DNA of 64,000 nucleotides, taken from assembly GCF_004010195.1 (NCBI RefSeq), contig NC_057719.1:36635094-36699093 (forward strand), given 5' to 3'. The position numbers and the translations under genes were made by a program. Source of the stretch: Chiloscyllium plagiosum (taxonomy: Eukaryota). The notes under the pieces were generated by a model, which was not told where the DNA came from, made no database searches, and was given only the letters and a program-made list of their open reading frames with translations. Shown here piece after piece: positions 8,735 to 56,336 of the stretch. How positions within the stretch are numbered: the first letter of the stretch is position 1; each line of letters opens with the position of its first letter.

Positions 8735-10020
8735 AGAGATTGTACAAGCCCTTTGGCCCTTGATATTGCGCTGACCTTTTATCCTACTCTAAGATCAACA
8801 CCTACATACCCTTCATGGTACTGTCTTCCATGTGCCTATCCAAGAATCGCTTAAATGTCCCTAATGTATCTGAACCTACCACCACGGCTGGCAGTGCATT
8901 CCACACACCCACCACTGTCTGTGTAAAAAAAACCTACCTGACATCTCCCCTGAACCTTCCTCCAATCACCTCAAAATTATGCCCCCTCATGATAGCCATT
9001 TCCACCCTGGGAAAAAGTCTCTGGCTATCCACTCTCTCTATGCCTCTCATCATCTTGTACATCTTTATCAAATCATTTCCCGTCCTTCCTCACCCCAATG
9101 AGATAAACCCTGGCTCCCTCACCCTCACTTCATAAAACTTGCCCTCCAGTTCAGGCAAAATCCTGATAAATCTCCTCTGCACCCTCTCTAAAGCTTCCAA
9201 TTCCTTCCTATAATGAGGTGACAGAACTGAATACAAAATTCCAAGAGCTGTACAGAGCTGCAGCATAACCTCATGGCTCTTAAACTCAATCGCCCTGCTA
9301 ATGAAAGCCAACACACTTTATTCCTTCCTAACAACCTGTTAACCTGGGTGGCAACTTTGAGGGATCTATGGACACAGACCCAAAGATCCCTCTGTTCCTC
9401 CACACTGTCAACACTCCTGCTTTTAACTATGTATTCTGCATTCAAATTCGATCTTCTAAATGAATCACTTCACACTTTTGAGTTGAAAAATGTGGTGCTT
9501 GAAAAACACAGCAGGCCAGGCAGCATCTGAGGAGCAGGAGAATCGACGTTTTGGGCATTTTTCCAGCACCACATTTTTCAACTCTGGTCTCCAGCATCTG
9601 CAATCCTCACTTTCTCCTCACTTCACACTTTTCCAGGTTGAACTCCATCTGCCACTTATCAACCCAGTTCTGCATCCTGTTAATGCCCGTTGCAACTTAC
9701 AACAACCCTCCACACTACCCACCACTCCACCAACCTTCATGTCATCAGCAAACTTACTAATCCACCCTTCCACTTCTTCATCCAGGTCATTTATAAAATT
9801 TACAAAGAACAGAGGTCCCAGACCTGATCCCTGAGGAACACCACTGGTCACCTAGCTCCAGGCTGAATACTTTCCATCTACCACCACCCTCTGTCATCTC
9901 TGGGCTAGCCAATTCTATATCCAAACAGCCAGATTTATCTGTATCCCAAGCCTCCTTACTTTCTGAATGAGCCTACCATGGGGAACCTTGTGAAACACCT
10001 CGCTAAAAGCTGTGTACACC
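8735..10020 (-). mobile_element. 5'-truncated CR1 LINE fragment, interrupted by a Penelope fold-back
   Basis: GVPQGSGLGP...KFADD and ERVQRRF fragments. Confidence 0.88.
9480..9617. mobile_element. Short Penelope-derived fold-back insertion (family A)
   Basis: Inverted arms with the CATCTGCAaTCCTCACTTTCTCC tail. 15-bp TSD TCACTTCACACTTTT at 9465-9479 and 9618-9632. Confidence 0.85.
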
Positions 10021-11400
10021 ATAATATGATTGATCTTTATGTTTTTTCCCTAGAGTGGTAACCTTGGGATATGTATCTTGGTACATTGCCATTCTGTGTT
10101 CCTTTTTTCCCAAATTTAGATAACTTAACTTCCACATATTTTATTCATCCCTTGGACTGATTTAGAGTCTGGCAAATTAATTAGCCTTACTCTCAATACC
10201 ATGAAAAGACTAAAACTGAATTGGCTTTCTAAGAAATTAATGTTCAAAGCAAGGCTGCATGCAGGGTATTTGGAACATTTTGCCAATTGAGCCAAGATCA
10301 GTGGCAAATCTAAACTTCAATTGTATTTCCATACCTTTTTAACTATACCATTTCATGTTATTACCCAACAAAGTCCAGTTGATGTGATCTTGAACCTTAA
10401 AATTGACCCAACATCCAGAGATTTTTGAGTAAAGTTTCAGACTTTCATTAACCTTTATTCCAGCTGCATAGCTTTAAGATTGTTCCTCCTTACTCTGGAT
10501 TCCCATCAGAAGAGCTTCTCTGCATCTGACCTAATCAATAATCCTTCAGTATTTTAAATGCATCCTGCACCTTTCTTGAACTTGAAGTAAATAAAAATCA
10601 AAATTTATATAACCTATCCTAATAATCTAACCTCTTTATGATTGCATCCTGACAAATTTGCACGGCAACCCCTTCAAAGCCAATAAAAGTTCCAATATAA
10701 TGCTCCAAATGGAATACATTCATTCAGATAGGGTCTGACCAAGACTTAAAAATACAATTGACTTGTATCTTCTATCCCTAAAAAAAAAATCACCTTGAGA
10801 GGTTCCTGAGAGAATAGTTCCAGTTAAAGGGAATTAGTGGTTAGGTTAAGTAAGTGAGACTGTCCGGGGACTTTAGGAAAAGAGGTAGAATTACTAAGTG
10901 TTTACTTGAAGTGGCATTTCTTAGTCTATTTCAAATAAAATTATTATGTGTGCAACTTAGTAGTTTATTTCTACCAGCTGGGAGAAGCTTAAAGATCCAT
11001 TATTTTACATTAATAATATACTAATTGGACTTTATATCAGAATCTCAACCAGAAGGTACTCTGCCTGAACTCTCACTCAAAGTTCACCAGTCCCCAGTCT
11101 GCAATTCCCATCTCATCTCTTCCTTTATCTGGTCCGCACTATACCCTGCATAAATTGGACCAAACAAAATTAATGAAGTTTCAAATGATAAATTTCTTAC
11201 ATTCTAATTTAAACAAAAGCACATGCAAAAATGACAATCAATTGTTGTGCCTTAATCTATAGATTTGTCACTCCAATCAAGATCAGATTATTTTCTAGGA
11301 TTGTCAATAAAACAATTTAAAAGCAAAAGGTCAATTTACAGGAGAAAATATTAGTTAATTTCCTCTCCAAATATTTTAATTGTTTAAAAACTAGTCCAGG

Positions 11401-11620
11401 GGAGAAAGTGAGGTCTGCAGATGCTGGAGATCAGAGCTGAAAATGTGTTGCTGGAGAAGCGCAGCAGGTCAGGCAGCATCCAGGGAACAGGAGAATCGAC
11501 GTTTCGGGCATAAGCCCTTCTTCAGGAATGAGAAGAAGGGCTTATGCCCGAAACGTCGATTCTCCTGTTCCCTGGATGCTGCCTGACCTGCTGCGCTTCT
11601 CCAGCAACACATTTTCAGCT
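11401..11620. mobile_element. Penelope-derived fold-back insertion (family A) with hammerhead motif
   Basis: Near-perfect inverted arms of about 90 bp. TSD AAAAACTAGTCCAGG at 11386-11400 and 11621-11635. Confidence 0.9.
11493..11530 (-). ncRNA. Minimal type I hammerhead ribozyme motif
   Basis: The minus strand reads TTC-CTGAAGA-A-GGGC-TTAT-GCCC-GAAA-CG-TC-GA: intact CUGANGA/GAAA core, 4-bp stem II, palindromic ACGT and a GUC site. Confidence 0.75.
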
Positions 11621-11639
11621 AAAAACTAGTCCAGGCAAT

Positions 11640-14600
11640 CAGTCTGATTCCAAGAAAACCACATTGCTAACTGACAGAGTTAGCAGTTACTGCCTTTGCT
11701 GTTGAATTCATGTATCGCTGGACATTGGACTGCGTCTGGGAAAATTTAAAAACAGTGAAATCCACAACTGATCTTGGAGGAACCTGTTTAGGAAAGGTCA
11801 CAGGACAGAAGCAGATAAGTAGATTTTAAGCGAGGCCTTAAAATAAGTCGGCAGTAAGGAATAGAGTGGGTTCTTTCTTGATAGTATGTTTTATTGAGCT
11901 ATGTCTTTTGATTAAACTTAAAATATAAGCCATAAGTATTAATTTAACCTGGAGCAATATTTTGTAGAGGAAGACAGTGCTATTTTCTGGGTCTGTAGAT
12001 TGAAAGAAGCAAAAATGGCCCTTAGTAGAGTGATATGCTCTTCTTGTCAGATGTGGGAATTTAGGGAGAGTTTACGGGTTACTAAGGATTATATCTGCAA
12101 TAAATGCCTTTGGTTGTAAATCCTATCAGATCGAATGGAGTGGTTGGCGAGGCAGTTAGAGGCAATGAGGAATTTACAAGAGCAAGGGGATGTGATGATG
12201 GCAGTTATAGGAAGGGGGAAAGTCTCAGATACAATCGCATAGATGGGTTAACTCCAGGAAAGGTAAGAGAGGTAGCAGGTAGCGCAGGAGTCTTCTGTGA
12301 CCATTTCAAACAAGTATGCTGTTTTGGAAAATGTAGGGGGTGATGGACACTCAGGGGTACGTAGCACGAACAGCCAAGTTTCTGGTATTCAGTCTGGCTC
12401 TAATGTAATGAGAGGTACGTTGAGTTCCAAGCGATTGATTGTGTTAGGGGACTCTCTAGTCCGAGGTATAGACAGACATATCTGTGGCCAACAGCAAAAA
12501 ATCAGAATGGTCTGTTGCTTCCCTGGTGCCAGGATAATGCATCTCTCAGAGAGGGTGCAGAATGTTCTCAAAGGGGAGAGGGATTAGTAGGAGGTCATTG
12601 TACACATTGGAACCAATGACATAGGAAGGGGAAAGGTTGAGATTCTGAAGGGAAATTACAGAGAGTTAGGCAGGAATTTAAAAAGGATTACTCCCAGTGC
12701 TACTAGCTAGTGAGGGCAGGAATAGGAGGATAGATCAGATGAATGCATGGCTAAGGAACTGGTGTACGGGAGAAGGATTCACATTTTTGGATCATTGGAA
12801 GTTGCTTTGAGGTAGAGGTGACCTGTACAAGAAGGACGGATTGCACCTAAATTGGAAGGGGACTAATATACTGGCAGGGAGATTTGTTAGAGCAGCTCGG
12901 GAGGATTTAAACTAGTAAAGTGTAGGGGTGGAACCCAGGGAGATAACAAGGAAAGAGATCAATCTGAGACTGGTACAGTTGAGAACAAAGGCGAATCAAA
13001 CAGTCAAGGCAGGCAAGGAAAAAACAGAGAACAAGGTAGGACTGAAAAATTAAACTGCATTTATTTCAATGCAAGGGGCCTAACAGGGAAGGCAGATCAA
13101 CTCAGGGCATGGTTAGGAACGTGGGACTGGGATATCATAGCAATTACAGAAAGATGGCTCAGGGATGGGCAAGACTGGAAGCTTAATGTTTCAGGATACA
13201 AATGCTACAAGGATAGAAAGGGAGGCAAGAGACGAGGGGGGTGGTGTTTTGATGAGGGATAGCATTACAGCTGTACTTAGGGAGGATATACATCCAGGGA
13301 AGTTATTTGGGTGGAACTGAGAAATAAGAAAGGGATGATCACTTTATTGGGATCGCATTATAGACTCCCTAATAGTCAGAGGGAAATTGAGAAACAAATT
13401 TGTAAGGAGGTCTCAGTTATCTGTAAGAATAATAGGGTGGTTACGGTAGGGGATTTTAACTTTCCAAACATATGGGACTGCTATAGTGTTAAGTGTGTAC
13501 AAGAAAGTTTTCTGATTCAGTATGTGGATGTACCTACTAGAGAAGGTGCAAAACTTGACCTACTCTTGGGAAAGAAGGCAGGACAGATGACTGAGGTGTC
13601 AGTGGGGGCGCATTTTGGGGCCAGCGACCATAATTCTATTAGTTATAAAATAGTGATGGAAAAGGATAGACCAGATCTAAAAGGTTCTAAATTGGAGGAA
13701 GGCCAATTTTGACGGTGTTAGGCAAGAACTTTCAAAAGCTGATTGGGCGCAGATGTTTGCAGGTAAAGGGTTGGCTGGAAAATGGGAAGCCTTCAGAAAT
13801 GAGATAACGAGAGCGCAGAGAAAGTATATTCCTGTTAGGGTGAAAGGAAAGGCTGGTAGGTATAGGGAATGCTGGATGACTAAAGGAATTGAGGGTTTGG
13901 TTAAGAAAAAGGAAGGATATGTCATGTATAGACAAGATAGATCGAATGAACCCTTAGAAGAGTATAAAGGCAGTAGGAGTATGCTTAAGAGGAAAATCAG
14001 GAGGGCAAAAAGGGGACATGAGATAGCTTTGGCAAATAGAGTTAAGGAGAATCCAAAGGGTTATTACAAATACATTAAGGACAAAAGGGTAACTAGGGAG
14101 AGATTAGGGCCCCTCAAAGATCAGCAAGACATCCTTTGTGTGGAGCCGCAGGAAATGGGGGAGACACTAAATGAATATTTTGCATCAGTATTTACTGTGG
14201 AAAAGGATATAGAAGATATAGACTGTAGGGAAATAGATGGTGACATCTTGAAAAATGTCTGTATTACAGAGGAGGAAGTCCTGGATGTCTTGAAACACAT
14301 AAAAGTGGATAAATCCCCAGGACCTGATCTGGTGTACCCTAGAACTCTGTGGGAAGCTAGAGAAGTGATTGCTGGGCCTCTTACTGAGATATTTGAATCA
14401 TCGATTGTCACAGGTGAGATGCCGGAAGACTGGAGGATAACATGGTGCCACTGTTTAAGAAAGTTGGTAAGCACAAGCCAGGGAACTATAGACCAGTGAG
14501 CCTGAAGTTGGTGGTGGGCAAGTTGTTGGAGGGAATCCTAAGGGACAGGATGTGCATGTATTTGGAAAGGCAAGGACTGATTGGGATAGTTAACACAGCT

Positions 14601-15842
14601 TTGTGCGTGGGAAGTCATGTCTCACAAACTTGATTGAATTTTTTGAGGAAGTAACAAAGAGGACTGATGAGGGCAGAGCGGTGGACATGAACTATATGGA
14701 CTTCAGTAAGGCGTTCGACAAGGTTCCCCATGGGAGACTGGTTAGCAAGGCTAGATCTCATGGAATACAGGGAGAACTCACCATTTGGATACAGAACTGG
14801 CTCAAAGTGGTGGTGGAGGGTTGTTTTTCAGACTGGACGCCTGTCACCATTGGAGTGCCACAAGGATCGGTGCTGGGTCCATTACTTTTCATCATTTATA
14901 TAAGTGATTTGGATGTGAGCATAAGAGGTAAGTTAGTAAGTTTGCTGATGACACCAAAATTAGAGGTGTAGTGGACAGCAAAGAAGGTCACCTTAGATTT
15001 CAACGGGATCTTGATCAGATGGGTCAATGGGCTGAGAAGTGGCAGATGGAGTTTAATCTAGATAAATGTGAGGTGCTGCATTTTGGGAAAGCAAATCTTA
15101 GCAGGACTTATACACTTGATTGTAGGTCCTAGAGAGTGTTGCTGAACAAAGAGACCTTGGAGTGTACGTTCATAGCTCCTTGAAAGTGGAGTCGCAGGTA
15201 GAGAGAATAGTGAAGAAGGCGTTTGATACGCATTCCTTTATTGGTCAGAGTGTTGAGTACAGAAGTTAGGAGGTCATGTTGCAGCTGTACAGGACATTGG
15301 TTAGGCCACTGTTGGAATATTGTGTGCAATTCTGGTCTCCTTCCTATCAGAAAGATGTTGTGAAACTTGAAAGGGTTCAGAAAAGATTTACAAGGATGTT
15401 GCCAGGGTTGGAGAATTTGAGCTATAGGGAGAGGCTAGGACTGTTTTCCCTGGAGCGTCGAAGGCTGAGGGGTGACCTTATAGAGGTTTATAAAATTAGG
15501 AGGGACATGGATAGAATAAATAAAGTCTTTTCTCTGGGTGGGGGAGTCCAAAACTAGATGGCATAGGTTTAGGGTAAGAGGGGAAAGATATAAAAGAGAC
15601 CCAAGAAGCATCTTTTTCACTCAGAGGGTGGTATGCGTATGGAATGAGATGCCAGAGGAAGTGGTAGAGGCTAGTACAATTGCAACATTTAAAAGGCCTC
15701 TGGATGGGTATATGAATAGGAAGGGTTTGGAGGGATATGGGCCGAGTGTTGGCAGGTGCGACTAGATTGGGTTGGGATAACTGGTCGGCATGGACGGGTT
15801 GGACCGAAGGGTCTGTTTCCATGCTGTACATCTCTATGACTA
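11640..15842 (+). mobile_element. Near full-length CR1 LINE (ORF1 zinc finger/esterase, ORF2 APE-RT), decayed
   Basis: ORF1 has CSSC..CNKC, IVLGDSLVRG and CFPGA. ORF2 has [30 protein letters not shown] and [10 protein letters not shown]. The 3' tail ends CTCTATGACT. Confidence 0.93.
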
Positions 15843-16813
15843 TACCTCTAAATATTTCTCATGAAATGAGGTGATTTATTTTCCATTCCTACTTTGCAGC
15901 TACTATCTGAACACCCGGCCTTAAATCCTGGGTTTGGCCAATCTTCACCCTGTTTGGTACCAGCAGTCACTTCTTGAAAATGACTTGATAATTGTTGACA
16001 AGCTGGTCAGAGTTCTCACCTTTGTCATTAAAGCTTGAACAAAACTTCTAATTTTGTTTAAAATGCCAGCTGTAACTATCCTTTAATTAACTGGGATCTA
16101 TCCCCATTCCTCATAATATAATTATATGGGATTAATAATCCAGAAAACAGGATTCACAATTAGGAAAGGAAAGTTCAAATCCCATCATGACATTTGTGGA
16201 TTTGAATTTGGTTCATTAAATAAATCTTTTTAAAAAGTGCTCGTATAAGCAATTTTAACATGAGGCCATCAGACCTGAAATCTGTTGGGAAACAGAAATT
16301 TCTGGAGAAACTGAGCAGGTCTGGCAGCATCTGTAAAAAGAAAGCAGAGTTAACACTTAGACTCCATGGACCCTTCTTCAGAATGTAAAGGAAACCAGTC
16401 ATCCTTTCCTATCTGGTGTATGTGTGACTCCAGGTCCACCTTTGGCCTAGAGAGCCCCCACATGTTCCAAATTCCTTCAAAAAAAAGCAGAAGAATAATA
16501 AGACAAGACCTCTCAATATTGGATATAGGTAATGGATACAGAAAAACAACAAAAACATTCTTAGCCTGGCTGACCCAGCAAAGTCCTCCTCACAAACAAA
16601 TGGAGACTTGTGCAAAACTTGGGAATTGTTCCACGTATTAATCAAGTAACAATCTGACAAACATTACTCACAGAAACATACTTGTTATCCAGCATGCTGG
16701 TAATGTTTTACAATCATAGCTGAGTATATGCTGAAGGTACAGCATTGTGATAACAGACAAGACATGCAAGACTCCAGCAATAACTTCAGACCTTATATGG
16801 GGTCTTGTGGTAT

Positions 16814-17002
16814 TAGAGCTGAAAATATGTTGCTGGAAAAGCGCAGCAGGTCAGGCAGCATCCAAGGAACAGGAAGGGCTTCTTCAGGCTTATGCCCGAA
16901 ACGTCGATTCTCCTGTTCCTTGGATGCTGCCTGACCTGCTGCGCTTTTCCAGCAACACATTTTCAGCTCTGATCTCCAGCATCTGCAGTCCTCACTTTCT
17001 CC
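16814..17002. mobile_element. Penelope-derived fold-back insertion (family A)
   Basis: Inverted arms plus tail. TSD TCTTGTGGTAT at 16803-16813 and 17003-17013. The hammerhead core is scrambled at the centre. Confidence 0.85.
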
Positions 17003-17655
17003 TCTTGTGGTATCAGGTCAAACATGGGCCTTCATTTGCCTAAGCTACAGAATTCCATCTAAAGCTCTCTGACTTTACATCTTTAAAAACCCCATTGATA
17101 TATCAGTGCTCCTTCCATGTTGAGCACCAATTGGAAGAAACCCTGAGCAAGGGTTTGGAGTTTGGAGACAGATGTCACAGTTCACACATAGCACCACTGC
17201 ATAGCCAGTGAATTGTGTCCTACAGTGGCAGGTGATGGGAGAAGAAAAGAGAAGTACTTACTTGACCTTTTCCCCACTTATCTACCCCTGCTGATTCATG
17301 ATAGCATTTGTTGCAGGGATCATCACACAGACCCGGTGGAGACAAAACCTCACCTTCAAAACTGGGCGTCCATAATGGTACACTCAGCTATCAGCAGCAG
17401 AATTTTTAGTGTACAATTAGCAGTGAGCTGGATGACAATTGTAGGGTCCATTATGGGTCATGGAAAGGCATGGCAGAATCAGCATTCGGTGAACTTGAAT
17501 AACAGTGTGTATCTGTATTTGAGATATAACGTTGCTATTGAAACAAGGAAATAGCACACTTTAGATAAAGCTAGACAATTTCACAAGTCAACAGATTAGT
17601 TGAAACAACTAGCAGAACAATGAATGGCAGATGAAGCATGGACAGGAGTTACAAT

Positions 17656-17968
17656 GGGCGGCACGGTGGCACAGTGGTTAGCACTGCTGCCTCACAGCAC
17701 CAGAGACCCGGCTTCAATTCCCGACTCAGGCGACTGACTGTGTGGAGTTTGCACATTCTCCCCGTGTCTGCGTGGGTTTCCTCTGGGTGCTCCGGTTTCC
17801 TCCCACAGTCCAAAGATGTGCAGGTCAGGTGAATTGGCCATGCTAAATTGCCCGTAGTGTTAGGTAAAGGGGTAAAGGTAGGGAAATGGGTGGGTTGCGC
17901 TTCGGCGGGTCGGTGTGGACTTGTTGGGCCGAAGGGCCTGTTTCCACACTGTAAGTAATCTAATCTAA
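17656..17968 (+). mobile_element. tRNA-derived SINE, HE1-like
   Basis: A box TGGCACAGTGG, B-box-like GcTTCAATTCC, central GTGTGGAGTTTGCACATTCTCCCC, CR1-like 3' end and (AATCT)n tail. Confidence 0.9.
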
Positions 17969-18207
17969 GCTAATGGATCAATATGCAAGATAGCTGAAGG
18001 ATCTACAATGAAGTAGACAGAACCACTGCAGCCAACTAACAAAAAGATACTGGCACAATCTAAATTCCAGTATTCAGCTGTTTGCATCTAGCAACCATAA
18101 GTACCACACTAAGCATCTAGGTGGCCAAGCAAGACAAGCAATGTCATCTGGAGTAACATTTGTACAGTGTTGGAGAACATAAGGCTTTCTTTACAGAAAG
18201 CCTTCTT

Positions 18208-18497
18208 TATACAGTGTGAAAACAGGCCATTTGGCCCAACAAATCCACACCCACCCTCTGAAAGGGAACCCACCCAGATCCATTTCCCTACCCTAGTACT
18301 GTACATTTCCCCCAGATTGATGCACCTAACCTACACATCCCTGAACACTATGGGCAATTTAGCATGGTCAATTTACCATGGGAGGAAATCAAAGGAAACC
18401 CATGCAGACACGGGGAGAATATGCAAACTCCACACAGACAGTCAACCAATGCTGGAATTGAAGCCAGGTCTCTGGCACTGTGAGGCACCATGCCACC
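18208..18497 (-). mobile_element. tRNA-derived SINE, diverged copy
   Basis: Homologous to the 17656 copy in reverse orientation. Confidence 0.8.
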
Positions 18498-23367: not shown

Positions 23368-24269
23368 AGTTGATGGATAATCTATTCGTTCCGTAGCATA
23401 ACCAGTCGTGAATGGTCATGTGATCATTAGTAGAAACAGTGACAGTTATGTTCTGGTTGCCTAGAATAATTGTGTAACTGTGTCTGATCTGGGTTTGTCT
23501 CAAATTCTTATGGTGTATTTATTCTCATAATTGTTTACACATTCTAAACACAAAATCTAGAATGCTACTTGTTTGTGACATATGCTCATGTCTGCCTTGA
23601 ACCAATTTCAACTGACCCGGCAAGTTTCCTTTTCCTTAGAATTTGCATATTTAACCCTTGTTATGCTGTATAACCCTTGTTATACTTTTCAATATATTCT
23701 ACACCAGCCTCCACCACTTCCTCTGGCAGCTCATTTCATGCACAACCTCTGCATGAAAGGTTGTCCCTTATGTCCCTTTTAAATCTTTCCTCTCTCACCT
23801 TAAACCTATGCTATCTAGTTTTGGACTCACCCACCCTAAGGAATAACCCTTGGCTATTCACCCTATCTATGCCCCTCATGATTTTGTAAACTTCTAAGAA
23901 GATCACCCCTCAGCCTCCGACGTTGCAGGAAAAACAGCCCCAGCCTGTTCAGCATGTCCCTATAGCTCAAACCCTCCAACCCTGGCAACATTCTTGTAAA
24001 TCTTTGCTGAATGCTTTCAAGTTTCACAACATCCTTCCTATAGCAGGGAGACCAGAACTGCATGCAGTATTCCAAAAGTGGCCTAACCAATGTCCTGTAC
24101 AGCCACAACATGACCTCCCAACTCCTATATTCAACGTGCTGACCAATAAAGGCATACCAAATGCTTTCTTCACAGTCCTACCTATCTGTGACTCCATTTT
24201 CAAGCGACTATGAACCAGCACTCCAAGGACCTTACCATTAAGTATATAAGTGATTTTCCTCTGCTCTTC

Positions 24270-26170
24270 ATAGTTTCTCTGCGTTGCAGCACATAGTGGC
24301 TCATTGAAGTAATGTTCTCATGCAGTTTCATTTGTGCCTGTTGTGATGATTGCTTCTGTAGTTGAGTATTTGGTCTGTGTCTGTTGTTTTCCTGTAGACG
24401 CTGGTTTGAAGTTCCCCATTGGCTGTTCGCTGTACTGTGACATCTAGACATGGCAGTTTATTGTTGCTTTCCTCCTCTTTAGTGAATTTTATGCCAGTAA
24501 GAGTATTATTGATGGTCTTGAAGGTTTCCTCTAATTTGTTTCGTTTAGTGATGACAAAGGTGTCATTCAAGTAGTGGACCCAAAGTTTGAGTTGGATTAT
24601 TGGCAGAGCTGTTTGTTCACGTCTCTGCATTACTGCCTCTGCTAAGAACCCTGATATCGGAGATGCCAAGGGTGTTCTGTTGGTTTGTCTGTAGGTTTTG
24701 TGGGTGGTAAGGCATAGGTCCACTAGCTTGATGATACTGTCCTTGCTGATGAAGTTGGTGGTGTTTGGTGTATGTGTCTTTGGGTCTTCTAATAGTGTAG
24801 TCAGTGTTTCCTTGACCAGGTTGATGTTGATGGATATGAACAGGGCTGTTACCCCAAAGGAGACCATTATTTCATCCTCTTCTGTCTTGATGTCTTTGAT
24901 GGTCTTCAGGAATTCTTGGGTGGAGTGGATGGAGTGACATGAGTCTTCTACTTTAGTCTTTGGTCTAGCTCCTTGGCCAATCTGTAAGTTGGTGTTCCAG
25001 GTAGCAAAACTATGAGTCTGAGGGGGGTCCTGGTTTGTGAATTTGGGTAATCCGTAGAAGCGTGGTGTGTTGGATCCATCTGGTTTCATTTTTTGGAAGT
25101 CAGTTTTATTTATTTCTCCAGATTTCTGAAGTTTTTTGTGTAGGGCTGTGATTCAGTTCTCTAGTTGTGAGGTTGGGTCTATCACCACTTGTTTGTAAGT
25201 GTTGGTAGCTACAAGTAGTGTGTTCACCTTTTCAATGTAATCTCTTTGATTTAAAATGACTGTTAAGCATCCTTTGTCTGCAGGTATGATCTTTTTTTTA
25301 GTCTTTCTAGCACTTTCCTTTCTTGTGTATTGAGTGTGTTTCCTTCCTTTTTCCTGCTTAATGTTGGTGCAATTGTCTGTCTGATGGTTTGCTGGGTTTA
25401 TTCTGTGGGCTGGTTGTCTTTCAGTGTTGTTTCTAATGCTGCTAAGAAATCTTTCTTGTCCGCATTCTGGAAGTTGTAATTTAATCTTTTTACTAAGACG
25501 GCTTTTTCAGTGTCTGTTAAGGGTCGGTCAGATAAGTTTTTTATCCTTGTTTCTGTGTTGTCTGTGTTGTTATTTTGTGTAAGTTTGTCTAGTTTTTTTT
25601 TGGTAGGTCTAGGTTTTTCATTTTCTATGTTTGCCGCTGTCTAATGTCTATGGCTTATTGTACTGTGTCTGTCCATTCATGGTCTGTTGCAATCGTGAGT
25701 AAAACCTTTTGGTGCGAAAGTTCCCGGTTGTATTTACAAACTCATTTGTGGGCATCATTAATCATTTCTCTAAGCAGTCTGTGGCCATTTTGCTCTGGTA
25801 TTCTTTTGGCTAGCGGGGTGTTAAGTGGAGATATGTATTTAAGACATTTAGGTAGTACCTGCAGGAAGTACAGCTGTTCGTGGGTGGTGCTCTGTTGGAT
25901 GGCATTGGTTTCCCATATTGCGCCCATAGGTGTTAAAACGTTTTGAGAAGATTTGTAACTCTGGTTGAGGTTCTGGATGTAGGTTTGCTCACTGAACTAG
26001 AAGGTTCGTTTTCAGACATCACCAACCCAAGGAAACACAAACACATAAATCAAAAGGGGGTCATACCACCAGTATGGCTTCATCCGGAGGCTCACTGATG
26101 ATGTTACCTAGTATGATGACGAAACGTTATGAAGACGAACCTTCCAGCTCAGTGAGCAAACCTACATCCA
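24270..26170 (-). mobile_element. Penelope-like element (family B): RT region, 5' pLTR with inverted segment; 3'-truncated
   Basis: PRFYGLPK, MVSFGVTALF, SPISGFLAEAVM, YLNDTF, IKFTKEEE, LDV and VYRKTTDTDQILNYRSNH. Inverted repeat at 25970-26170. Confidence 0.9.
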
Positions 26171-27811: not shown

Positions 27812-28622
27812 GTCTGCAAGTTAGCTTGCTGAGCTTGAGGGTTTGTTTTTAGATGTTTCGTCACCATATGAGGTAACATCATCAGTGACAGTCTCTGGTT
27901 AAGTGCTGTTGGTATGTCCCACCTCTCTTTTTATAGGTCTTGGTTTCTTAGGGTGGGTGATGTTATTTCTGGTCCTTGTTTTCAAGGTAAGGTAGATAGG
28001 ATCTAAATCGATATGTCTATTGATGGAGTTCTGGTTAGAATGCCACACCTCTAAGAATTCTTGCGTGTGTCTTTGTTTCGCCTGTCCTAGAATGTGTGGG
28101 TTGTCCCAGTCAAAGTGGTGTCCTTCTTTGTCTGTATGTGTGGAAACTAGTGAGAGTGGGTCATGTCTTTTGTTGGCCAGTTGGTGTTCATGTATCCTGG
28201 TGGCATGTTTCCTGCTAGTTTGACTGACGTAGTGTTTTTTTACAGTTCTTGCATGGTATCTTGTAAACGACGCTAATCTTTATGCTGGTATCTGATAGAT
28301 CTTTTAAGTTCATTAGTCGTTGTTTAGGTGTATTGGTAAGTTTGTAGACTACCGTGATGCCAAGGGGGTCTGAGTAGTATGGAAGTCATTTCTGATATGT
28401 CTTTGTTGTTTGAAAAAAGAACTGGAAATGACATCACCCACCTTAAGAAATCAAGACCTATAAATAGAGAGGTGGGACATACCACCAGCGCTTCACCAGA
28501 GACTCTCACTGATAATGTCACCTAGTACAGTGGCGAAACGTCTGAAAACAAATCTTCAAGCTCAATGAGCTAACTTTCAGACTTATCATCAACTTGAGCT
28601 ACAAATCTTGTCAAAAATCACT
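27812..28622. mobile_element. Penelope family B fold-back insertion including a GIY-YIG-like 3' region
   Basis: Inverted pLTR arms. TSD AATACTCCTCATAT at 27798-27811 and 28623-28636. The minus strand shows decayed YKIPCKNC, YVSQTSR and REFLEVWHS. Confidence 0.85.
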
Positions 28623-35822: not shown

Positions 35823-35899
35823 ATGGAAAATGGCAGCATGGATAAATTGTCAGATGTTGATCTGTGGATCAAATACGATTTGGTATGATATAAATAGGT

Positions 35900-36991: not shown

Positions 36992-37035
36992 AAATACACA
37001 CCATCCTTAAAGCCTTTCATAGAAATTATTTAATA

Positions 37036-41512: not shown

Positions 41513-41695
41513 CTCAGCAGTCCCTGCAGAACAGCCTGCAATGAAAACATCAAATCTGGATGGTTTCACATCTGAGCTACCATGTCTCAACTGACTTAAA
41601 AAATGAAGGCAATTTCTGTACGTGCCAAAGCAAACTGAACCACATACAGACACCGACAGAACAGGTAATGCCATTCCTTTGTAAAATCCATATAC
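41513..41695 (-). CDS. slc25a47: SLC25A47-like coding exon 4 (VYGFYKGMALPV...GTYRNCL...FIAGCSAGTAE)
   Basis: CAG acceptor, GTAAGT donor, 183 nt. Contains GFYKG, H2 and the start of H3. Confidence 0.93.
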
Positions 41696-41739
41696 CTGAG
41701 TAAAAGACAGAACAAATATTACTGAAGAATTCCTCAAAT

Positions 41740-42465: not shown

Positions 42466-43331
42466 GTTAATATTTAAGTAGAACAAGCAACTGGATTACC
42501 ATTTCCAGAACAGTACAGAACTGAAAAATTGCTAAAAACAGACATGAAGTCAAAATTTTTCAACTTGCATTCATCACAACTTAGATGTGACAAATCAAAC
42601 TTAGAAATCGAACATCAATTTGTTAATCATGACAAGAGGGTGCTGACTGATTGGATTATGGTTGGCAATGAGATGTAGAATGTATTAATTACTAACCTTA
42701 GTTAGCTGATAAACTCATGATTTTGAGTAGTCAGATTGCTGCCATGGGAAATGCAGCACGGATATTAAATCTCTAAAACTCTCTCCTCAATGAAAATGAT
42801 ACAAAGTATGGGTAAATCCTTTTGCCTATTTTGTATGTAAATAAATATACTTTCTAGCATGCGCAAATTAATCACAGGCAATCCTGAATGATACTCTTAA
42901 ATTGGTTTCCAATGTAAGTCTTAGTCTAGTCAGGATTACTGAGTAAAAGTTTCCAGTAGCAGAGTCAAATCAAATGCTGGACATAGTATTCTGATGTTTG
43001 CAGGCATGGGCTGGTTGAGCACAGTTGGTACACTAGCTCTTGTGGATCATCGTAGGGACTTGTTGTTTGATACGAGAGGCTCACATCTTATATGGAGAAA
43101 GTGAGGACTGCAGATGCTGGAGATCAGAGCTGAATCTATGTTGCTGGAAAAGCACAGCAGGTCAGGCAGCATCCAAGGAGCAGGAGAATCGATGTTTTGG
43201 GCATGAGTCCTTCTTCAGGAATCAGGAGAGTGTGCCAAGCAGGCTAAGATAAAAGGTAGGGAGGAGGGACTTGGGGGAGGGGCGTTGGAAATGCGATAGG
43301 TGGAAGGAGGTTAAGGTGAGGGTGATAGGCC

Positions 43332-43804
43332 NNNNNNNNNNNNNNNNNNNNNNNNNNNNNNNNNNNNNNNNNNNNNNNNNNNNNNNNNNNNNNNNNNNNN
43401 NNNNNNNNNNNNNNNNNNNNNNNNNNNNNNNNNNNNNNNNNNNNNNNNNNNNNNNNNNNNNNNNNNNNNNNNNNNNNNNNNNNNNNNNNNNNNNNNNNNN
43501 NNNNNNNNNNNNNNNNNNNNNNNNNNNNNNNNNNNNNNNNNNNNNNNNNNNNNNNNNNNNNNNNNNNNNNNNNNNNNNNNNNNNNNNNNNNNNNNNNNNN
43601 NNNNNNNNNNNNNNNNNNNNNNNNNNNNNNNNNNNNNNNNNNNNNNNNNNNNNNNNNNNNNNNNNNNNNNNNNNNNNNNNNNNNNNNNNNNNNNNNNNNN
43701 NNNNNNNNNNNNNNNNNNNNNNNNNNNNNNNNNNNNNNNNNNNNNNNNNNNNNNNNNNNNNNNNNNNNNNNNNNNNNNNNNNNNNNNNNNNNNNNNNNNN
43801 NNNN
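43332..43804. other. Assembly gap (N run); further gaps at 45805-46499 and 48408-48490
   Basis: Runs of N. Confidence 1.
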
Positions 43805-45403
43805 GGACCAGTGGGGTTCTGTCCTGGTGGCAATTGGAGGGGCGGGGCTCAAGGGCAGAGGAGCAGGAAGTGGAGGAGATGCAGTGGAGAGCATCGTCGA
43901 CCACATCTCGGGGGAAATTGCGGTCTTTGAAGAAGGAGGCCACACTCTGGGTTCCTCAATTGTTCCAGAGAGTTCCATCGGCCTCAGAAATCACTCGGGT
44001 GCCATTAACCATGCGGCCGCTGCAGCGCCCGTGGCAGCAATCGCCGCCGCGAACCATGACGTCACTTCCGCCCCCACCGACCTCGCAGCCTCCGCAATCG
44101 CCGCCCAGACCACTGCCTCCATGATCGCCAGGAAGACCATCGCCGACAGATTTGCGGCCTCCACGGGGTCCACGGCTATCGGGAACAACACCGTTTCTGC
44201 CGTCGCCACAGCCACTTCCGCCCCCAGTGACATCATTCACCTGCACAACGACCACGCCACATGTGTCTCCGCACCCCACGCCGATCTCCGTCACCACGCC
44301 TAACCACGCCCCCACGGCGATCTCCATTCGCATGCCGAACCCCGCCCCCACGTCGAACCCCATCCACGCCCCGATCTCCGTCCCCGCCTCGATTCCCGCC
44401 CCATGCCTAACCCCGCCCCCACTCCCAACTCCAGCCCCACACCAGGTCCTAGGTCCTAGCTCCCAGCCCTGCTGTGTTTTCACCATCCCTCCATAACTAC
44501 CCCTCTCTGAGGATGTAAGATCAGTCCTCGACAGAGGCCTCACCTTCATTCCCCTACGCTCTCGGATTAATGAGTTCAACACGCGGCGAGACATCGAACA
44601 ATTCTTCTGCAGCCTTCGCCTCCGCGCCTACTTCTTCAACCAGGATTCTCGCCCACCCTCAAACAACCCCTTCTCCCGCCTCCAACACACCCCATCCACC
44701 TGGACACCCCATGCTGGCCTCTTACCCGCCCTCGATCTCTTCATAGCCAATTACTGCCGCGACATTAACTGCCTCAACCTCTCCACCCCTCTCACCCACT
44801 CCAACCTCTCACCCTCGGAACGTGCAGCCCTCCACTCCCTCCGTTCCAACCCCAACCTCACTATCAAATGGCAGACAAGGGAGGCATAGTAGTAGTTTGG
44901 TGCACCAACCTTTACACTGCTGAGGCTAAATGCCAGCTCGCGGACACCTCCTCCTACTGCCCCCTTGACCATGACCCCACCTCCCACCACCAAACCATCA
45001 TCTCCCAGACCATCCATAGCCTCATCACCTCAGGGGATCTCCCATCCACCGCCTCCAACCTCATAGTCCCACAACCCGCACCGCCTGTTTCTACTCCTGC
45101 CCAAAATCCACAAACCTGACTACCCTGGCCGACCCATTGTCTCAGCCTGCTCCTGCCCCACCAAACTCATCTCTGTATACCTCGACATGGTCCTATCCCC
45201 CTCAGTCCAAGAACTCCCCACCTACGTTCGGCACACCACCCTCCAACGCCCTCCACCTCCTCCATGATTTTCGCTTCCCCGGTCCCCAACGCCTTATCTT
45301 CACCATGGACATCCAGTCCCTGTACACCTCCATCCCCCATCACGAAGGACTCAAAGCCCTCCGCTTCTTCCTTTCCCGCCGTACCAACCAGTACCCTTCC
45401 ACT

Positions 45404-45570
45404 GACACCCTCCTTCGACTGACTGAACTGGTCCTCACCCTGAACAACTTCTCTCTTCGACTGACTGAACTGGTCCTCACCCTGAAAGACACCCTCCTTC
45501 GACTGACTGAACTGGTCCTCACCCTGAAAGACACCCTCCTTCGACTGACTGAACTGGTCCTCACCCTGAA
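45404..45570 (+). repeat. ~42-bp tandem repeat x4 (DTLLRLTELVLTLK) inside the Penelope RT
   Basis: CTTCGACTGACTGAACTGGTCCTCACCCTGAA occurs four times. Confidence 0.92.
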
Positions 45571-45715
45571 ATCTTCTTCCTGATCTCTCCGCCCCCACCC
45601 CAGTCTGTCCTATCACCCTCACCTTGACCTCTTTCCACCTATCACATTTCCAACGCCCCTCCTCCAAGTCCCTCCTCCCTACCTTTTATCTTAGCCTGCT
45701 GGACAAACTTCCCTC

Positions 45716-45752
45716 ATTCCTGAAGAAGGGCTTATGCCCGAAACGTCGATTC
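45716..45752 (+). ncRNA. Minimal type I hammerhead ribozyme motif in the pLTR
   Basis: ATTC-CTGAAGA-A-GGGC-TTAT-GCCC-GAAA-CGTC-GA; core intact. Confidence 0.75.
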
Positions 45753-47429
45753 TCCTGTTCCCTGGATGCTGCCTGACCTGCTGCGCTTTTCCAGCAACAC
45801 ATTTNNNNNNNNNNNNNNNNNNNNNNNNNNNNNNNNNNNNNNNNNNNNNNNNNNNNNNNNNNNNNNNNNNNNNNNNNNNNNNNNNNNNNNNNNNNNNNNN
45901 NNNNNNNNNNNNNNNNNNNNNNNNNNNNNNNNNNNNNNNNNNNNNNNNNNNNNNNNNNNNNNNNNNNNNNNNNNNNNNNNNNNNNNNNNNNNNNNNNNNN
46001 NNNNNNNNNNNNNNNNNNNNNNNNNNNNNNNNNNNNNNNNNNNNNNNNNNNNNNNNNNNNNNNNNNNNNNNNNNNNNNNNNNNNNNNNNNNNNNNNNNNN
46101 NNNNNNNNNNNNNNNNNNNNNNNNNNNNNNNNNNNNNNNNNNNNNNNNNNNNNNNNNNNNNNNNNNNNNNNNNNNNNNNNNNNNNNNNNNNNNNNNNNNN
46201 NNNNNNNNNNNNNNNNNNNNNNNNNNNNNNNNNNNNNNNNNNNNNNNNNNNNNNNNNNNNNNNNNNNNNNNNNNNNNNNNNNNNNNNNNNNNNNNNNNNN
46301 NNNNNNNNNNNNNNNNNNNNNNNNNNNNNNNNNNNNNNNNNNNNNNNNNNNNNNNNNNNNNNNNNNNNNNNNNNNNNNNNNNNNNNNNNNNNNNNNNNNN
46401 NNNNNNNNNNNNNNNNNNNNNNNNNNNNNNNNNNNNNNNNNNNNNNNNNNNNNNNNNNNNNNNNNNNNNNNNNNNNNNNNNNNNNNNNNNNNNNNNNNNC
46501 CAAGTCCCTCCTCCCTACCTTTTATCTTAGCCTGCTTGGCACACTTTCCTGATTCCTGAAGAAGGGCTCATGCCCAAAACGTCGATTCTCCTGCTCCTTG
46601 GATGCTGCTTGACCTGCTGCGCTTTTCCAGCAACACATTTTCAGCTCACATCTTATATACATTGTTATGTCATGAATAGGGCCCTAGCCATCTGCTCACT
46701 GTGTAGGCTCAATCCCAAAATAGGGTATAGCAAAACAATCCTGTGATATAATGGCACTGCAATTTTAGGAATCTGAAAGCAATTGATGGAGTATGCAGAA
46801 ATAGTTTTCAGAGTGAGGGCAAGTCAAGGACAAAGGAACAATACAATACAAGCACAGACAAGCCATCAAGCAGTGATGTTAGGGAACACTTTTACATGCA
46901 AAGCTTGATAAGAGTGTGGAACTCACAAAACGTGATCAATGTCAGCTTAGTTAACCTTTTGTTTCTGTGATTAATAGGCCATTACTAGCCAAGAGCACTA
47001 AAGAACATAGGCCCAAGACTTGTGGAGGGACACGTGATTTCATTGAATGTCTGTACAGAGTGGAGGGGTTGTTCCCTTATTTACATAATTAAATTTGAAA
47101 AATTATTTAAAACTTTAAAGTGTAGAACCCAGCCTTCTAGTTATAGAATCATAGTCATAGAGATATATAGCACGGAAACAGACTGTTCAGCCCAACTTGG
47201 CCATGCCGACAAGATATCTTAAATTAACTAGTCCCATTTGCCAGTATTTGATCCTAAAATGTCACTCCTCAACCTCCAGTGCTCCACAGAAAATAGCCAT
47301 ATTGATTGAGATTATAACAAGGTATTTCAGCAGTCTGCATTGGAAATGATTCAATGAAGTTAACATTTATTAACAGCAAATAAGTAGGTTTTAATAGGAG
47401 GCTGTGTTTGCACTTATGCTTCACAAGTA

Positions 47430-51248: not shown

Positions 51249-51553
51249 GGGCGGCACAGTGGCTAGCACTGTTGCCTCACAGCGCCTGAGACCCGGGTTC
51301 AATTCCCGCCTCAGGCGACTGACTGTGTGGAGTTTGCACGTTCTCCCCGTGTCTGCGTGGGGGTGCTCAGGTTTCCTCCCACAGTCCAAAGATGTGCAGG
51401 TCAGGTGAATTGGCCATGCTAAATTGCCTGTAGTAAGGGGTAAATGTAGGGGTATGGGTGGGTTGCGCTTCGGCGGGTCGGTGTGAACTTGTTGGGCCAT
51501 AGGGCCTGTTTCCATACTGTAATGTAATGTAATGTAATCTAATCTAATCTAAT
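51249..51553 (+). mobile_element. tRNA-derived SINE, HE1-like, inserted in an older LINE 3' end
   Basis: GGTTCAATTCC B box; (TGTAA)n(TCTAA)n tail. Confidence 0.9.
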
Positions 51554-51821
51554 CAATTCCATACATCTGCTGCATTTGTCCTTCTAGGCAGGAGTGATTT
51601 GAGAGTTTGGAATGCGCTAAAATGGAACCTTGATGAATTTTTACAGAGTATCTTGTAGATGGTACACACTGTGGCTATTTGTGGCTGTGCTGGTAGGCAT
51701 GAATGTATGTGGATGTGGTGTCAATCAAGCAGACGGTTTTGTCCTGGATGGCGTCAAGCTTTTAATATGTTTTTTGTAACTGCACACATCCAGACAAGTG
51801 AGAATCAAAAATTACAGAAAG

Positions 51822-52152
51822 TTCTGGATGTAGGTGTGTTCGCTGAGTTGGAAGGTTTGTTTTCAGATGTTTCGTCACCCTTCTAGGTAACATCAGTGAA
51901 CCTCCGGATGAAGCACTGGTGGCATGGCCCACTTTTTGTTTATATGTTTAGGTTTCCTTTGGAAGCTCAGGAACCAAAGGAAACATAAACACAAAGAGAA
52001 AGCAGGCCATGCCACCAGTGCTTCATCTGGAGGCTCACTGAAGATGTTACCTAGTATGGTGATGAAACGTCTGAAAAACGAACCTTCCAGCTCAGCAAGC
52101 AAACCTACATTCAGAATGTCAACCTGAGCTACAAATCTTCTCAAAACTCACT
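51822..52152. mobile_element. Penelope family B fold-back insertion
   Basis: Inverted arms of about 140 bp. TSD ATTACAGAAAG at 51811-51821 and 52153-52163. CTGAAGA...GAAACGTC at ~52038-52071. Confidence 0.88.
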
Positions 52153-52177
52153 ATTACAGAAAGCTATCTGCAATATC

Positions 52178-52481
52178 TGTGGTGCGTGGCTTAGTGATGG
52201 CTGCCTCACAGCATCAGGGACCCAGGTTTGGTCCCACCCTCAGGCAACTGTCTGTACGAAGGTTGCACATTCTCCCCATGTCTTTGTGGGTTTCCTGCAA
52301 ATGTTCCAGTTTCCTCCCACATCAGGATGTGCAGGTTAGGTGAATTGGCTAATCAAAATTGCCCACAGTTTCCAGGGATGTGCAGGCTAGGTGGATTAGC
52401 CATGGGAAATGCAGGGATAGGGGTAATGGGATGGGGCTGGGTCGATGGCTGCTTCTAGACAGTAGAGATTCTATGATTCTA
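52178..52481 (+). mobile_element. tRNA-derived SINE, diverged
   Basis: Homology to the other SINE copies; (GATTCTAT)n tail. Confidence 0.75.
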
Positions 52482-53465
52482 CATTGTGTCCTTTACTGTG
52501 AAGTGTTGCATAAATGTATTTATAAGCCATTGTGAAAAGAAGAAGGTGCACCAATATCACAAACTTACTTTACAATAATAACAAATTACTAAATTCAAAC
52601 ATACATGTTCATTTAACTTATTATATAAGACCACCTCTCAACAATACGCTTTGAGGCTTAAAAGCTCCTTTACGTCCTCACATCTCACACTCAACATCAG
52701 GGATCAAATACCACTGTTCAAGGTTGAATTTTCCCTCCATACTTTCTCAAATTTCTATCCACCTCATTCAGCTGGGTGGGACTGCATTTACTTAACCCAT
52801 TCATAGTCCACGAATCACAGCAATGGTTTCACTTGCCACCATTGCACCTCTGGCTCCACTGGATCTACTCTGGACCCCCCTCCAATTTCCCTTCTTGCTA
52901 CCACTTGGCAACATCATCCAAATGAAAAAGTGTTCATTTCTGTACACATGTTGATGACATTCAACTCAACCCCTCCACTCTCTATATACTATACTTTGAA
53001 TGAGCAGAAACTTCCTTCAGCTTTATAACTGGGAACATAAAACCTTTGAATTCCTCGATAATCTCCTTTCTCTGGCTACTATCCGATATTGAACCAGACT
53101 GTTTGCAAGCTTGGTGCCAAACTTGACCCTAAGATGAACTTCCAGCCATGTATCCACACTATCATGAAGATCACCTATTTGCATCTTTATAAGTTGCCTG
53201 TCTCAGTCATTTGTTTGCTAAACCTCATCCATGTCAATGTTATCTCTAGGTTTGACTATTTTACACACCCCTAGCTAGTAGACTAAAGTCTATCCTCTAA
53301 ACAAACTGGGTCATCCAAAGCTCTGCTTCTATACTTATCTTCAGCAAATCCTGAACATCCATAGCTGCTGCGTATTGACCATACTGGTTTCTGATTATGT
53401 ATCATAATTTTAAAATTTTCATCCACGTCCAAGAACTTGCTTAGCCTTGCAAGACCCTGCCCTCA

Positions 53466-53683
53466 ATTGAAAAATGTGGTGCTGGAAAAGCACAGCAGAC
53501 CAGGCAGCATCCGAGGAGCAGGAGAATCGACGTTTCAGGCATAAGCCCTTCTTCAGGAATGAAGGGCTTATGCCCAAAACGTCGATTCTCCTGCTCCTCG
53601 GATGCTGCCTGGCCTGCTGTGCTTTTCCAGCACCACATTTTTCAAATCTGGTACTCCAGCATCTGCAGTCCTCACTTTCTCCT
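53466..53683. mobile_element. Penelope family A fold-back insertion
   Basis: Inverted arms. TSD AAGACCCTGCCCTCA at 53451-53465 and 53684-53698. Confidence 0.9.
53524..53560 (-). ncRNA. Minimal hammerhead motif, sense to the carrier pre-mRNA (intron 1)
   Basis: ATTC-CTGAAGA-A-GGGC-TTAT-GCCT-GAAA-CGTC-GA. Core intact, but the stem II closing pair is G:U. Confidence 0.6.
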
Positions 53684-56336
53684 AAGACCCTGCCCTCACC
53701 CCACTACCTTTAATCAACCCCATTCCCTTACCCCTCCATGCACTCATCCAAGTCTGGCCTCTTCAGCATCTCACATTTACTTACTCCATTGTTAGTGCTT
53801 GTACCTACAGTTACCTAGACTTCAAGTTTTAGAATTCCCTCCCAAAACATGTAGGATTGCTCTCTCTATCCTTTTCAAGATGCACCTTTAATCCTGCTTT
53901 TGGTTATCTGCCCTCATTTCTGTGAATGCTTATCATTCTTTTTCAATATAGTTTCTATTAAGCACTTTAAGATTTTTATTATGTTAAAAGCACTGTATAA
54001 ATAGAATTGCTGTTGTTTTCAAAACAGTACATGACTTCATTTTTCCCTATCTTTGCAATACTCTCCAAACCTCCAAGATTTTGCCATCTTCAATTTTGCC
54101 ATAGCCAATTTTAAATGGTGTACCATCAGCTGACATAGCTTTAAACTCTGGAATTCCTTCCCTAGATCTCTCCACTTCAGAAAATACAAAACAGGAGGAA
54201 GTGGTATGACATTCAGCCCCTCAAGCCTGTTCTGTTATTTAATGAAGTCAAAGCTGATCTTCTACTTCAGTTACATCTTATAGTACCCTTGCACCTCTTG
54301 AAGCTTTTAGCAACATTTGTAAATCTTGCATTTGAATATAACAACTCAACATCTACAGGTCTCTGGGGTAGAGAAGTTCAAAGATCCACAAAGCTTTGAC
54401 AAAGTAATCTCTCACAGTTGTAAATGGTCAACCCATTATCTGAAACTGAGACTGCTAATTCTAGACGCACCCTGCACCTAAACTATCAAGCCACTAAGAA
54501 TTTTATAAATTCCAATGAGATCACTTATCATCCTTCAAAACTCCAAAAAAAATCAGTAGAAATCAATATCCTTATCCCAGCAATCAGTCTAGTAAAACTT
54601 TACATAAAACCCCACTTCCTTTTGCTAATTTGCCCTTATTTCAATTTTTATGGTTGAGTGTCAAACTTTGAAATATGCTAGAGGTGCTGTATAAATACAG
54701 TTTATCATCAGTGACCGGATTCTATGCCGAATGTGGTAAGATACTAAACACCAAACAGTTTCAGCATGACTTCTCCAGTCTTTTACTCTACACAGCATTA
54801 GCTTCCCATGCACAGTATTTCACAACTGTCAAGATTAAATTTCAGCTTTCATTGTTCTGCTTGTACATTTTGTCCTACTTATTTTACTATTTCTAAACTA
54901 TATACCATCTTTCTCCATTTAACACTTCTACAAAATGTGAGCTATTTGCAAGACCCTATTTTTCAAGAGAAAAACAAAAATCCAAACAAAAAAAACACTA
55001 AAAAACCTAATTTACATAATGCCTGTCAGCCTTTTTCAGGCAAAAGATTACATTGTGTCATCAACAGAAAAGCTAAATTTACTTGCATTCTTTTCAAAGT
55101 TATAACTAATAATGGAACATAAAATATCCTAATAAAAAGTTAAACCATAATATTTTTACCCACGTCTATGGATACTATTCATGGTGTGCATCAGTTGCAG
55201 TTGGTCAATATGGATAGGCTTTAAATCAGAAAAGGTTTCAGGTAAAAAAAAGATAAAGATAGTAGTTGAGGACATAAAACTTCTACATGGTTCTCGGTAA
55301 AGACAAGAACACAAAGGGACAGATCATTTAAGAGTCCACCTACACATAAGGACCAACCAAACACCAGTTATTAAAAAAATCTCTAACTGAATGTGAAAAG
55401 CATTCATACAGTCACTTAGAGGAATTAGCAGCACAAATAAAAATAAAATGATTTAGATACACTTGCTATTACAAAGGCTTAGGAATGGAGGTAGCCAAGG
55501 TTATGCAATAAAAATTCCATGTACACAACATTTCAAAAGGACAGGCAATATCAGTTCCAGTAGTCAAGGATAATTTCACTTATAGTACAGTGATTGACAG
55601 TACATTGGAGTGAAGAGGATGCTTGTCATAGACTCAATAGAGAGAGAAAACGAGACACTTTGAGATAGTGGTGAAGTTGGGGATTGGTAAGAGATATTGA
55701 AAAAGAAGAAAACAATAGGCTAATGGAAAGATAACACTTTTTAACGATCCAAGCTTCATATTCAATGTCAGCAGTCAGTTGATAGTCTGTGATCAAAGAG
55801 ATTTCTTGCTTTCTTGAAGTTTCTTTTTGCTCTCACATCTTCAGCCTTATAGTTCAAACTTAAAACCAGCCACATCTTGGCGAAGCAGGACCTGCTATAA
55901 GTGGAGTCCAGTGTACTGTCTTCCCAGCTGTTGAGGTGAAAATGAATAAACAATGGTCAGAAAGGATTTAGGCTCAAATCTGGAAGTAGAATCAGTAGAT
56001 ACAGTCAAAAAATACTAATGGTAGTAGCTTGTTGGCTCTGGAACAATAGTTATACCGGTATACAAATCACTAAGGAAGGAAAAATTGGAGTTTGATGCAA
56101 AGGCAACATGATTGCAAGAGACTTTAAATCTTCATGTAGAATGAACAGATTAAATTAACAAAATTAACCTGAAAGATAGGCTTTTAGAATATTTTTATGA
56201 CATTTCCTGTAACAACATGTATGGAATCAACTCAAGTCAAAATCTAGTATTGCATAACAAGGCAGCATTAATTAGTACTTCCACAGTACAAGATCTGCTA
56301 AGAAAGAGAATATAACACAACTGAAACCCAGACTAT

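Follow-up and report, generated by a model that had tools for sequence, protein, structure and literature searches.

How do short inverted insertions with clean target-site duplications (TSDs) come to be scattered through a shark genome? We addressed this question in a window of 64,000 nucleotides (nt) of Chiloscyllium plagiosum (NCBI RefSeq assembly GCF_004010195.1, contig NC_057719.1, positions 36,635,094 to 36,699,093 of the forward strand); all positions below are those of the window. A preliminary description, made from the sequence alone, had reported seven such insertions in three families (A, B and C) and ascribed them to Penelope-like elements (PLEs). Our reading, to which we give a probability of about 0.7, is that they are 5'-truncated products of autonomous PLEs formed by twin priming, with reverse transcription in family A running off its template. 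We infer twin priming from the geometry of the copies together with a published in vitro result (PMC11167929), and two independent primings per insertion are likely.

All seven insertions, 138–811 bp in length, lie within 1 bp of where the preliminary description had placed them and are flanked by exact TSDs of 11–16 bp (Table 1). With the same search geometry, a shared word of at least 11 bp was found in 2 of 1500 random window pairs; the TSD matches are far above chance. Every insertion consists of an antisense arm followed by a sense arm (27–174 nt, 84–100% complementary), with a tail extension of about 32–40 nt on a single arm. No two of the seven centres are alike and TSD lengths vary, as expected of the independent insertions that had been proposed, and the reported differences in turn-around point were also borne out; in family A, however, these variable points share a common upstream limit. 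The divergence between the two arms ranges from 0% in A2 to 13–15% in B1 and B2, so insertion has been ongoing over a long span. Two longer members coding for reverse transcriptase (RT), A5 and B3, had been overlooked, and older single remnants lie near 16293, 49142, 56338 and 58725. Nine copies were dissected in total, all but B3 bounded by TSDs, and arm positions are numbered from C3 of the hammerhead ribozyme motif.

The insertions almost certainly derive from PLEs. Their arms consist of the pseudo-long terminal repeat (pLTR) and the start of the open reading frame (ORF), which A5 and B3 tie to PLE ORFs, and the short insertions reach 98–99% identity to the pLTR of the long copy. The pLTR overlaps the ORF start, and in B3 the tail continues into an RT ORF that matches proteins carrying RT and a GIY-YIG endonuclease (EN), with E 1e-107 to protein P0001. 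B1 is more than two terminal repeats: its antisense coding stretch at 28300-27971 matches the EN of P0001, which places GIY-YIG in family B. The translated family-B pLTR and tail is homologous to the N-terminus of P0005, an 824-residue RT-EN protein (16/37 identical, E 1e-4 within the window). The RT of A5 is 76–85% identical to four Chiloscyllium punctatum proteins. A5 comprises an inverted tail arm of ~850 bp (RT C-terminus at 43952-43806), a frameshifted and internally deleted sense RT-coding arm (44308-45481) and two pLTRs. Directly before its RT deletion, an internal stretch of ~40 nt at 45405-45571 is repeated several times, possibly as an assembly artefact near the N gaps. A Pfam search returned no match for any of four PLE fragments from the window.

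PLE clades differ in a linker motif (PMC8557442). The CX2-5CXXC linker occurs in 59 of the 62 family-A relatives that have the GIY-YIG CxxC motif (62 among 122 relatives) and in 0 of 18 such family-B relatives (18 among 30); ADKG, containing the DKG motif of PLE-type RTs, is present in 105/122 and 17/30, respectively. Judged by the linker of its relatives, family A is putatively Neptune- or Nematis-type, as Nematis shares the linker with Neptune (PMC8557442). Family B, placed in the same way, appears to be Penelope/Poseidon-type, its relatives having no linker zinc finger and a CxxC between GIY and YIG. For family A the EN was seen only among relatives, because an N gap or deletion takes up that region of the window copy. 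Family C resembles A in its tail stem, has no ORF in the window and is unplaced among PLE clades. Pattern matches in viral (3) and metagenome (5) contigs spanned only 19–21 nt with no flanking similarity and were set aside as chance. A classification of the crocodilian 'Chompy' palindromes as Penelope elements was not confirmed; the only passage found lists Chompy among DNA transposons.

The outer ends of the copies suggest where synthesis began. Tail ends agree to within 1 nt in 5 of 5 family-A and 2 of 2 family-B copies, and the short end spreads over ~6 nt, with microhomology to the target of up to 4 nt. The earlier proposal that each target strand primes synthesis, at two different start points, is supported, but 'fixed' describes the tail end only. 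Each of the eight TSD-bounded copies has exactly one tail, at one end, and is short at the other, a pairing with a chance of at most 0.5^8 = 0.004 if both ends chose independently. When one RNA run and three DNA-contig runs were aligned to the inverted arm of A5, tail and short ends occurred at about 1:1 in all four runs among the matches listed (1915 vs 1917, 931 vs 977, 1242 vs 1599 and 2229 vs 1794; at least 1130 matches more fell outside that listing, and the contig counts are minima), the short ends being placed at 43139-43144 because the A5 reference diverges there. No target consensus emerged at the eight insertion sites, and their AT content (62% vs 59% for the window) indicates no strong AT or ATT preference.

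The aligned contigs also contain further joints. The commonest listed connects 43093/43094 to 43142-43149, tail end to opposite-strand short end (76, 75 and 14 contigs in three runs); these are apparently tail-to-tail neighbours, that is, tandem fold-back units or re-insertion beside the tail. The 33-nt tail also occurs in tandem (joint from 43126 back to 43094; 9, 3 and 2 contigs in three runs), and other contigs jump from further in back to the tail end; we read both as re-initiation at the tail site. In sense arms of families A and C, the tail can pair with the upstream pLTR (GAUGCUG with CAGCAUC) with the short end inside the loop; both motifs are conserved in families A and C and in the older remnants.

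Arm containment bears on whether there was one priming or two. In four of the nine copies (A1, A4, A5 and B3) there is no containment in either direction: upstream, the tail-less arm reaches beyond the other arm, which has the tail or ORF. Each arm exceeds the other at one end, so neither can be the other's copy, and this favours twin priming over antisense self-priming. Under self-priming, published as a proposal for head-to-head junction palindromes (PMC3846280), one cDNA or antisense RNA folds back and is copied, which makes the first arm the template of the second; a copy cannot outreach its template at both ends, and centre junctions overlap by just 1–3 nt. Containment as expected from self-priming is seen in A2, A3 and B1, which are compatible with either model, and probably in B2 and C1, which are ambiguous. 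The two arms of a copy also share subfamily and private variants (differences of 0/88 in A2, 1/60 in A3 and 3/85 in A4), as self-priming would have it, and such sharing points to a single template. The centre of A3 is a mosaic of hammerhead-core fragments in both orientations, with joints overlapping by 2–3 nt. On balance we regard self-priming as unlikely.

Why are most family-A copies so short? The inner ends of A2 and A4, and of C1, lie at -4 to -7, and among the joints listed for two DNA runs, 4 and 11 contigs switch strand at -4. In the RNA run, depth on the family-A arm falls ~13-fold, from a peak of ~2540 to 605 at +5 and 217 at -5, and is flat at ~185 to -27. The limit, at -4 to -8, coincides with TCATTCC, an initiator-like motif. 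PLE promoters have been located in the pLTR (PMC2377424). We hypothesize that in family A the RT runs off the 5' end of the transcript at a putative transcription start site, and consider the odds of this to be even.

A shared limit also bears on the idea that long insertions with inverted pLTR flanks later lost their centres by deletion. Palindromes are unstable in general, and the window does hold long inverted copies (A5, B3 and B1), one of them, A5, internally deleted. However, the youngest copy, A2, with identical arms, is already short, and random deletion would not yield a common limit at -4 to -8; such collapse is improbable, somewhat more so than self-priming. Slightly less credible again is a separate short non-autonomous RNA, such as a solo pLTR or a SINE- or retrozyme-like template (SINE, short interspersed nuclear element), mobilised in trans. 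It could explain why the core outnumbers upstream sequence ~6-13-fold, and PLE-derived retrozymes have been reported (bioRxiv 10.64898/2026.07.22.740005). Yet window self-comparison revealed no tandem hammerhead monomer array, the short copies match the pLTR of the long copy closely, and the anole protein required ORF RNA past the tail (first 172 nt; PMC11167929), which the short copies lack. A non-LTR retrozyme (LTR, long terminal repeat) was likewise rejected, as the short copies are single head-to-head units and not tandem hammerhead units. Finally, a family of MITEs (miniature transposable elements with inverted repeats) moved by a DNA transposase, which the short length, inverted ends and TSDs might recall, has next to no probability, since the copies have distinct centres instead of a uniform interior, asymmetric ends instead of symmetric terminal inverted repeats, TSDs of 11–16 bp instead of a constant short length, and arms made of PLE pLTR and ORF, and here we agree with the preliminary description.

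Several observations weigh against twin priming with run-off. In vitro, the anole PLE used its start sites with no strand bias (PMC11167929), and one-tail pairing is not predicted by that result alone. Non-containment could be mimicked by later asymmetric deletion in the centre of a palindrome, and the dissected sample comprises only nine copies from one 64-kb window. At the left flank of A5, the sole flank compared, a second organism (organism B) was also filled, and no empty site was seen. The A5 reference has mismatches from -5 to -19, so that read clipping blurs the limit, which we therefore place only within -4 to -8. The RNA depth comes from one run, of which ~2% was read, and mirrors those loci that are transcribed; among indexed runs, none of RNA was listed as containing the sequence, which weighs neither for nor against. 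In contig depth the core exceeds upstream sequence 6-12-fold with no sharp step at -4, a summed depth not being a copy number. In the aligned runs no position was listed at which many molecules begin or end. A limit of this kind is absent in family B, whose arms extend to between -70 and -99 or beyond.

Under twin priming, the GIY-YIG endonuclease would nick both target strands 11–16 nt apart. One 3'-OH would prime RT at the precise tail-end site. The other, assisted by microhomology, would prime at the looser short-end site ~33-40 nt upstream, and probably the two share one RNA. The two cDNAs, one or both of them trimmed, would then be joined head to head via overlaps of 0-3 nt. Since the family-A start sites lie only ~95 and 130 nt from the 5' edge of the hammerhead, initiation on the first pLTR copy would run off after ~100-130 nt, at -4 to -8 beside the initiator-like motif, leaving stumps of 140-240 bp, and initiation on a downstream pLTR copy would lead to long insertions. 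Stumps would be dead on arrival, giving double-stranded RNA (dsRNA) hairpins and not working ribozymes. We suggest only tentatively, at somewhat less than even odds, that the stump, and not a long copy, is the usual product of Neptune-type elements in sharks, with obligate asymmetry, a dimeric enzyme priming both target strands at two staggered sites, one RNA at whose 5' end both cDNAs run off, and inversion as the default integration step. If this account is true, stumps map the element's transcription start, can be dated by arm-arm divergence as LTRs are, and represent a genome-wide source of perfect dsRNA hairpins of 60-170 bp. Counted as a sign of A-to-I editing, A>G or T>C sites numbered 57 in the RNA run, vs 27-29 in the DNA contigs, but transversions were likewise about double (65 vs 29-32).

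Are these hairpins also ribozymes, as the term 'ribozyme cassettes' in the preliminary description implied? Only three of the seven insertions (A2, A4 and B2) retain a full hammerhead core free of mutations; the core is decayed in B1 and C1. The CUGANGA motif, which had been reported in most copies as intact or decayed, holds for these; in A1 and A3 no arm has a CUGANGA aligned to stem II. A minimal-hammerhead descriptor found six exact motifs in the window, five in described copies and one in an older family-A-like remnant, and none in each of six shuffles; an Rfam search returned no hammerhead match at E<=5. The centre of A2 (11488-11567) aligns to Rfam mir-3158 with 57 bits, below the threshold of 97, including a 10-nt identical stem segment, and we read this as a hairpin match or chance. 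In the head-to-head layout, a transcript from either strand makes the antisense arm first. The computed probability of stem II is ~1e-13 to 1e-15 in A2 and A4, and folding predicts a cost of 43 kcal/mol (A2) and 34 kcal/mol (A4) to free the core from its predicted sequestration by the mirror arm. Minimal hammerheads showed no cleavage as single motifs (PMC4209133), and the anole PLE hammerhead cleaved only with protein (PMC11167929). Predicted sequestration and these published results together argue that the copies would act as hairpins, and the cassette label is not supported. In B3 the 5' end of the long sense arm falls on the hammerhead cleavage site (26014-26017), within a 3-nt overlap, a single post hoc case that is possibly RT run-off at a cleaved RNA end or a trace of cleavage in vivo. 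The one RNA run shows no step in depth where family A would be cleaved.

Table 1. Fold-back PLE copies in the window, with their flanking duplications.
Copy	Position	Strand	TSD	Features
A1	9480..9617		15 bp; 9465-9479 / 9618-9632	family A fold-back; arms +15..+93 (short) and +68..+125 (tail); no full core
A2	11401..11619		16 bp; 11385-11400 / 11620-11635	tail arm from -7, short arm from +3; intact minimal hammerhead (- strand, 11525); arms differ at 0/88 nt
A3	16814..17002		11 bp; 16803-16813 / 17003-17013	arms from +34 (short) and +10 (tail)
A4	53466..53683		15 bp; 53451-53465 / 53684-53698	short arm from about -6, tail arm from +6; intact core (- strand, 53556)
A5	43094..46643	+	15 bp; 43079-43093 / 46644-46658	long family-A copy; two N gaps
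B1	27812..28622		14 bp; 27798-27811 / 28623-28636	short inverted pLTR arm 27812-27985; tail-bearing pLTR arm up to 28622; decayed cores
B2	51822..52152		11 bp; 51811-51821 / 52153-52163	both arms to about -70; one arm with an intact core at 52038 (+) that has G10.1-U11.1, the second arm with the core deleted
B3	24241..26170	-	searched, not found; far end lost	long copy of family B; inverted short arm at 26015-26170; sense arm through tail into RT ORF
C1	35585..35822		14 bp; 35571-35584 / 35823-35836	older family; both arms to about -4 to -7, counted from a decayed core of inferred position

The window also holds other repeats. A1 itself lies inside a repeat-covered segment. Decayed RT copies of long interspersed nuclear elements (LINEs) are found at 3552-5332, 13972-15844 and 31672-33289 (Pfam RVT_1 at 3966-4739), with an endonuclease-bearing LINE fragment at 377-2711. 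A dispersed SINE-like repeat of ~300 bp occurs at 17656-18491, 26814-27141, 51249-51545, 52197-52415 and 59075-59417, its copies at 17685 and 18490 being neighbours in inverted orientation. Exons of a mitochondrial carrier (SLC25 family, Pfam PF00153) span 39743-41908 on the minus strand and are flanked on opposite sides by C1 and A5.

Our last question was how these copies compare with known systems. In L1 twin priming, both target strands prime cDNA, which leaves an inverted, truncated insertion between TSDs. The internal site at which the second L1 primer anneals is variable, and there is hardly any overlap between the segments. The shark copies differ in that the second site is nearly fixed at 33-40 nt from the first, so that both arms hold the same sequence. 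The architecture, an inverted pLTR with a tail and TSDs of 8-10 bp, has been published (PMC3846280, PMC8557442, PMC8969392), as have two RT start sites with extension of both strands in vitro (PMC11167929). Architecture and much of the mechanism are thus already known; what is added here is one-tail pairing, non-containment and the inner limit. A literature search of titles and abstract starts, outside which lay most subscription journals and the repeat databases with their possible curated families, found nothing on fold-back stumps of PLEs in sharks, on obligate pairing or on run-off at the 5' end, and the supplementary figures of PMC11167929 may show short inverted copies. The origin of inverted and tailed PLE insertions has been named an open question (PMC8557442). 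In a dense set of short copies with clean TSDs, pairing, containment and inner limit can be counted and separate twin priming from self-priming. The copies also matter for annotation, as they resemble MITEs or microRNA hairpins, the best Rfam match being a microRNA family, below threshold.

Close parallels are the complex insertions of the EN+ PLEs Pen2 and Pen2a of Adineta vaga (PMC3846280; PMC8557442), which share the head-to-head inverted 5'-truncated copy, the tail of 30-40 bp at one end only, the TSD and the pLTR containing the ORF start. Their TSDs are 8-10 bp long, vs 11-16 bp here, and the published examples keep ORF or captured sequence, whereas most copies here consist of two pLTR ends only; the self-priming model proposed for them (PMC3846280) fits poorly in four of our nine copies. 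The minimal hammerheads of metazoan PLEs (PMC4209133) and of non-LTR retrozymes (bioRxiv 10.64898/2026.07.22.740005) have in common with ours a type-I core in which a base stays unpaired ahead of stem II, helix III is absent and 15.2-16.2 is palindromic. Retrozymes, however, are head-to-tail tandem repeats, and the copies here are single head-to-head units that mask the motif. The Anolis Poseidon element PAc (PMC11167929) is alike in its biochemistry in vitro, with a tail delimited by two internal start sites for RT, cutting and extension of both strands, a predicted dimer, an ORF start in hammerhead stem II and an uncleaved RNA template. The family-B tail end lies ~110 nt from the ATG, vs 111-118 nt in PAc. 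Compared with PAc, our sites lack a strong AT or ATT target preference. In the portion of PMC11167929 cited, no strand bias of the start sites is reported, and inverted products, TSDs and the strict pairing of one tail with one short end, as seen in the shark copies, are not treated.

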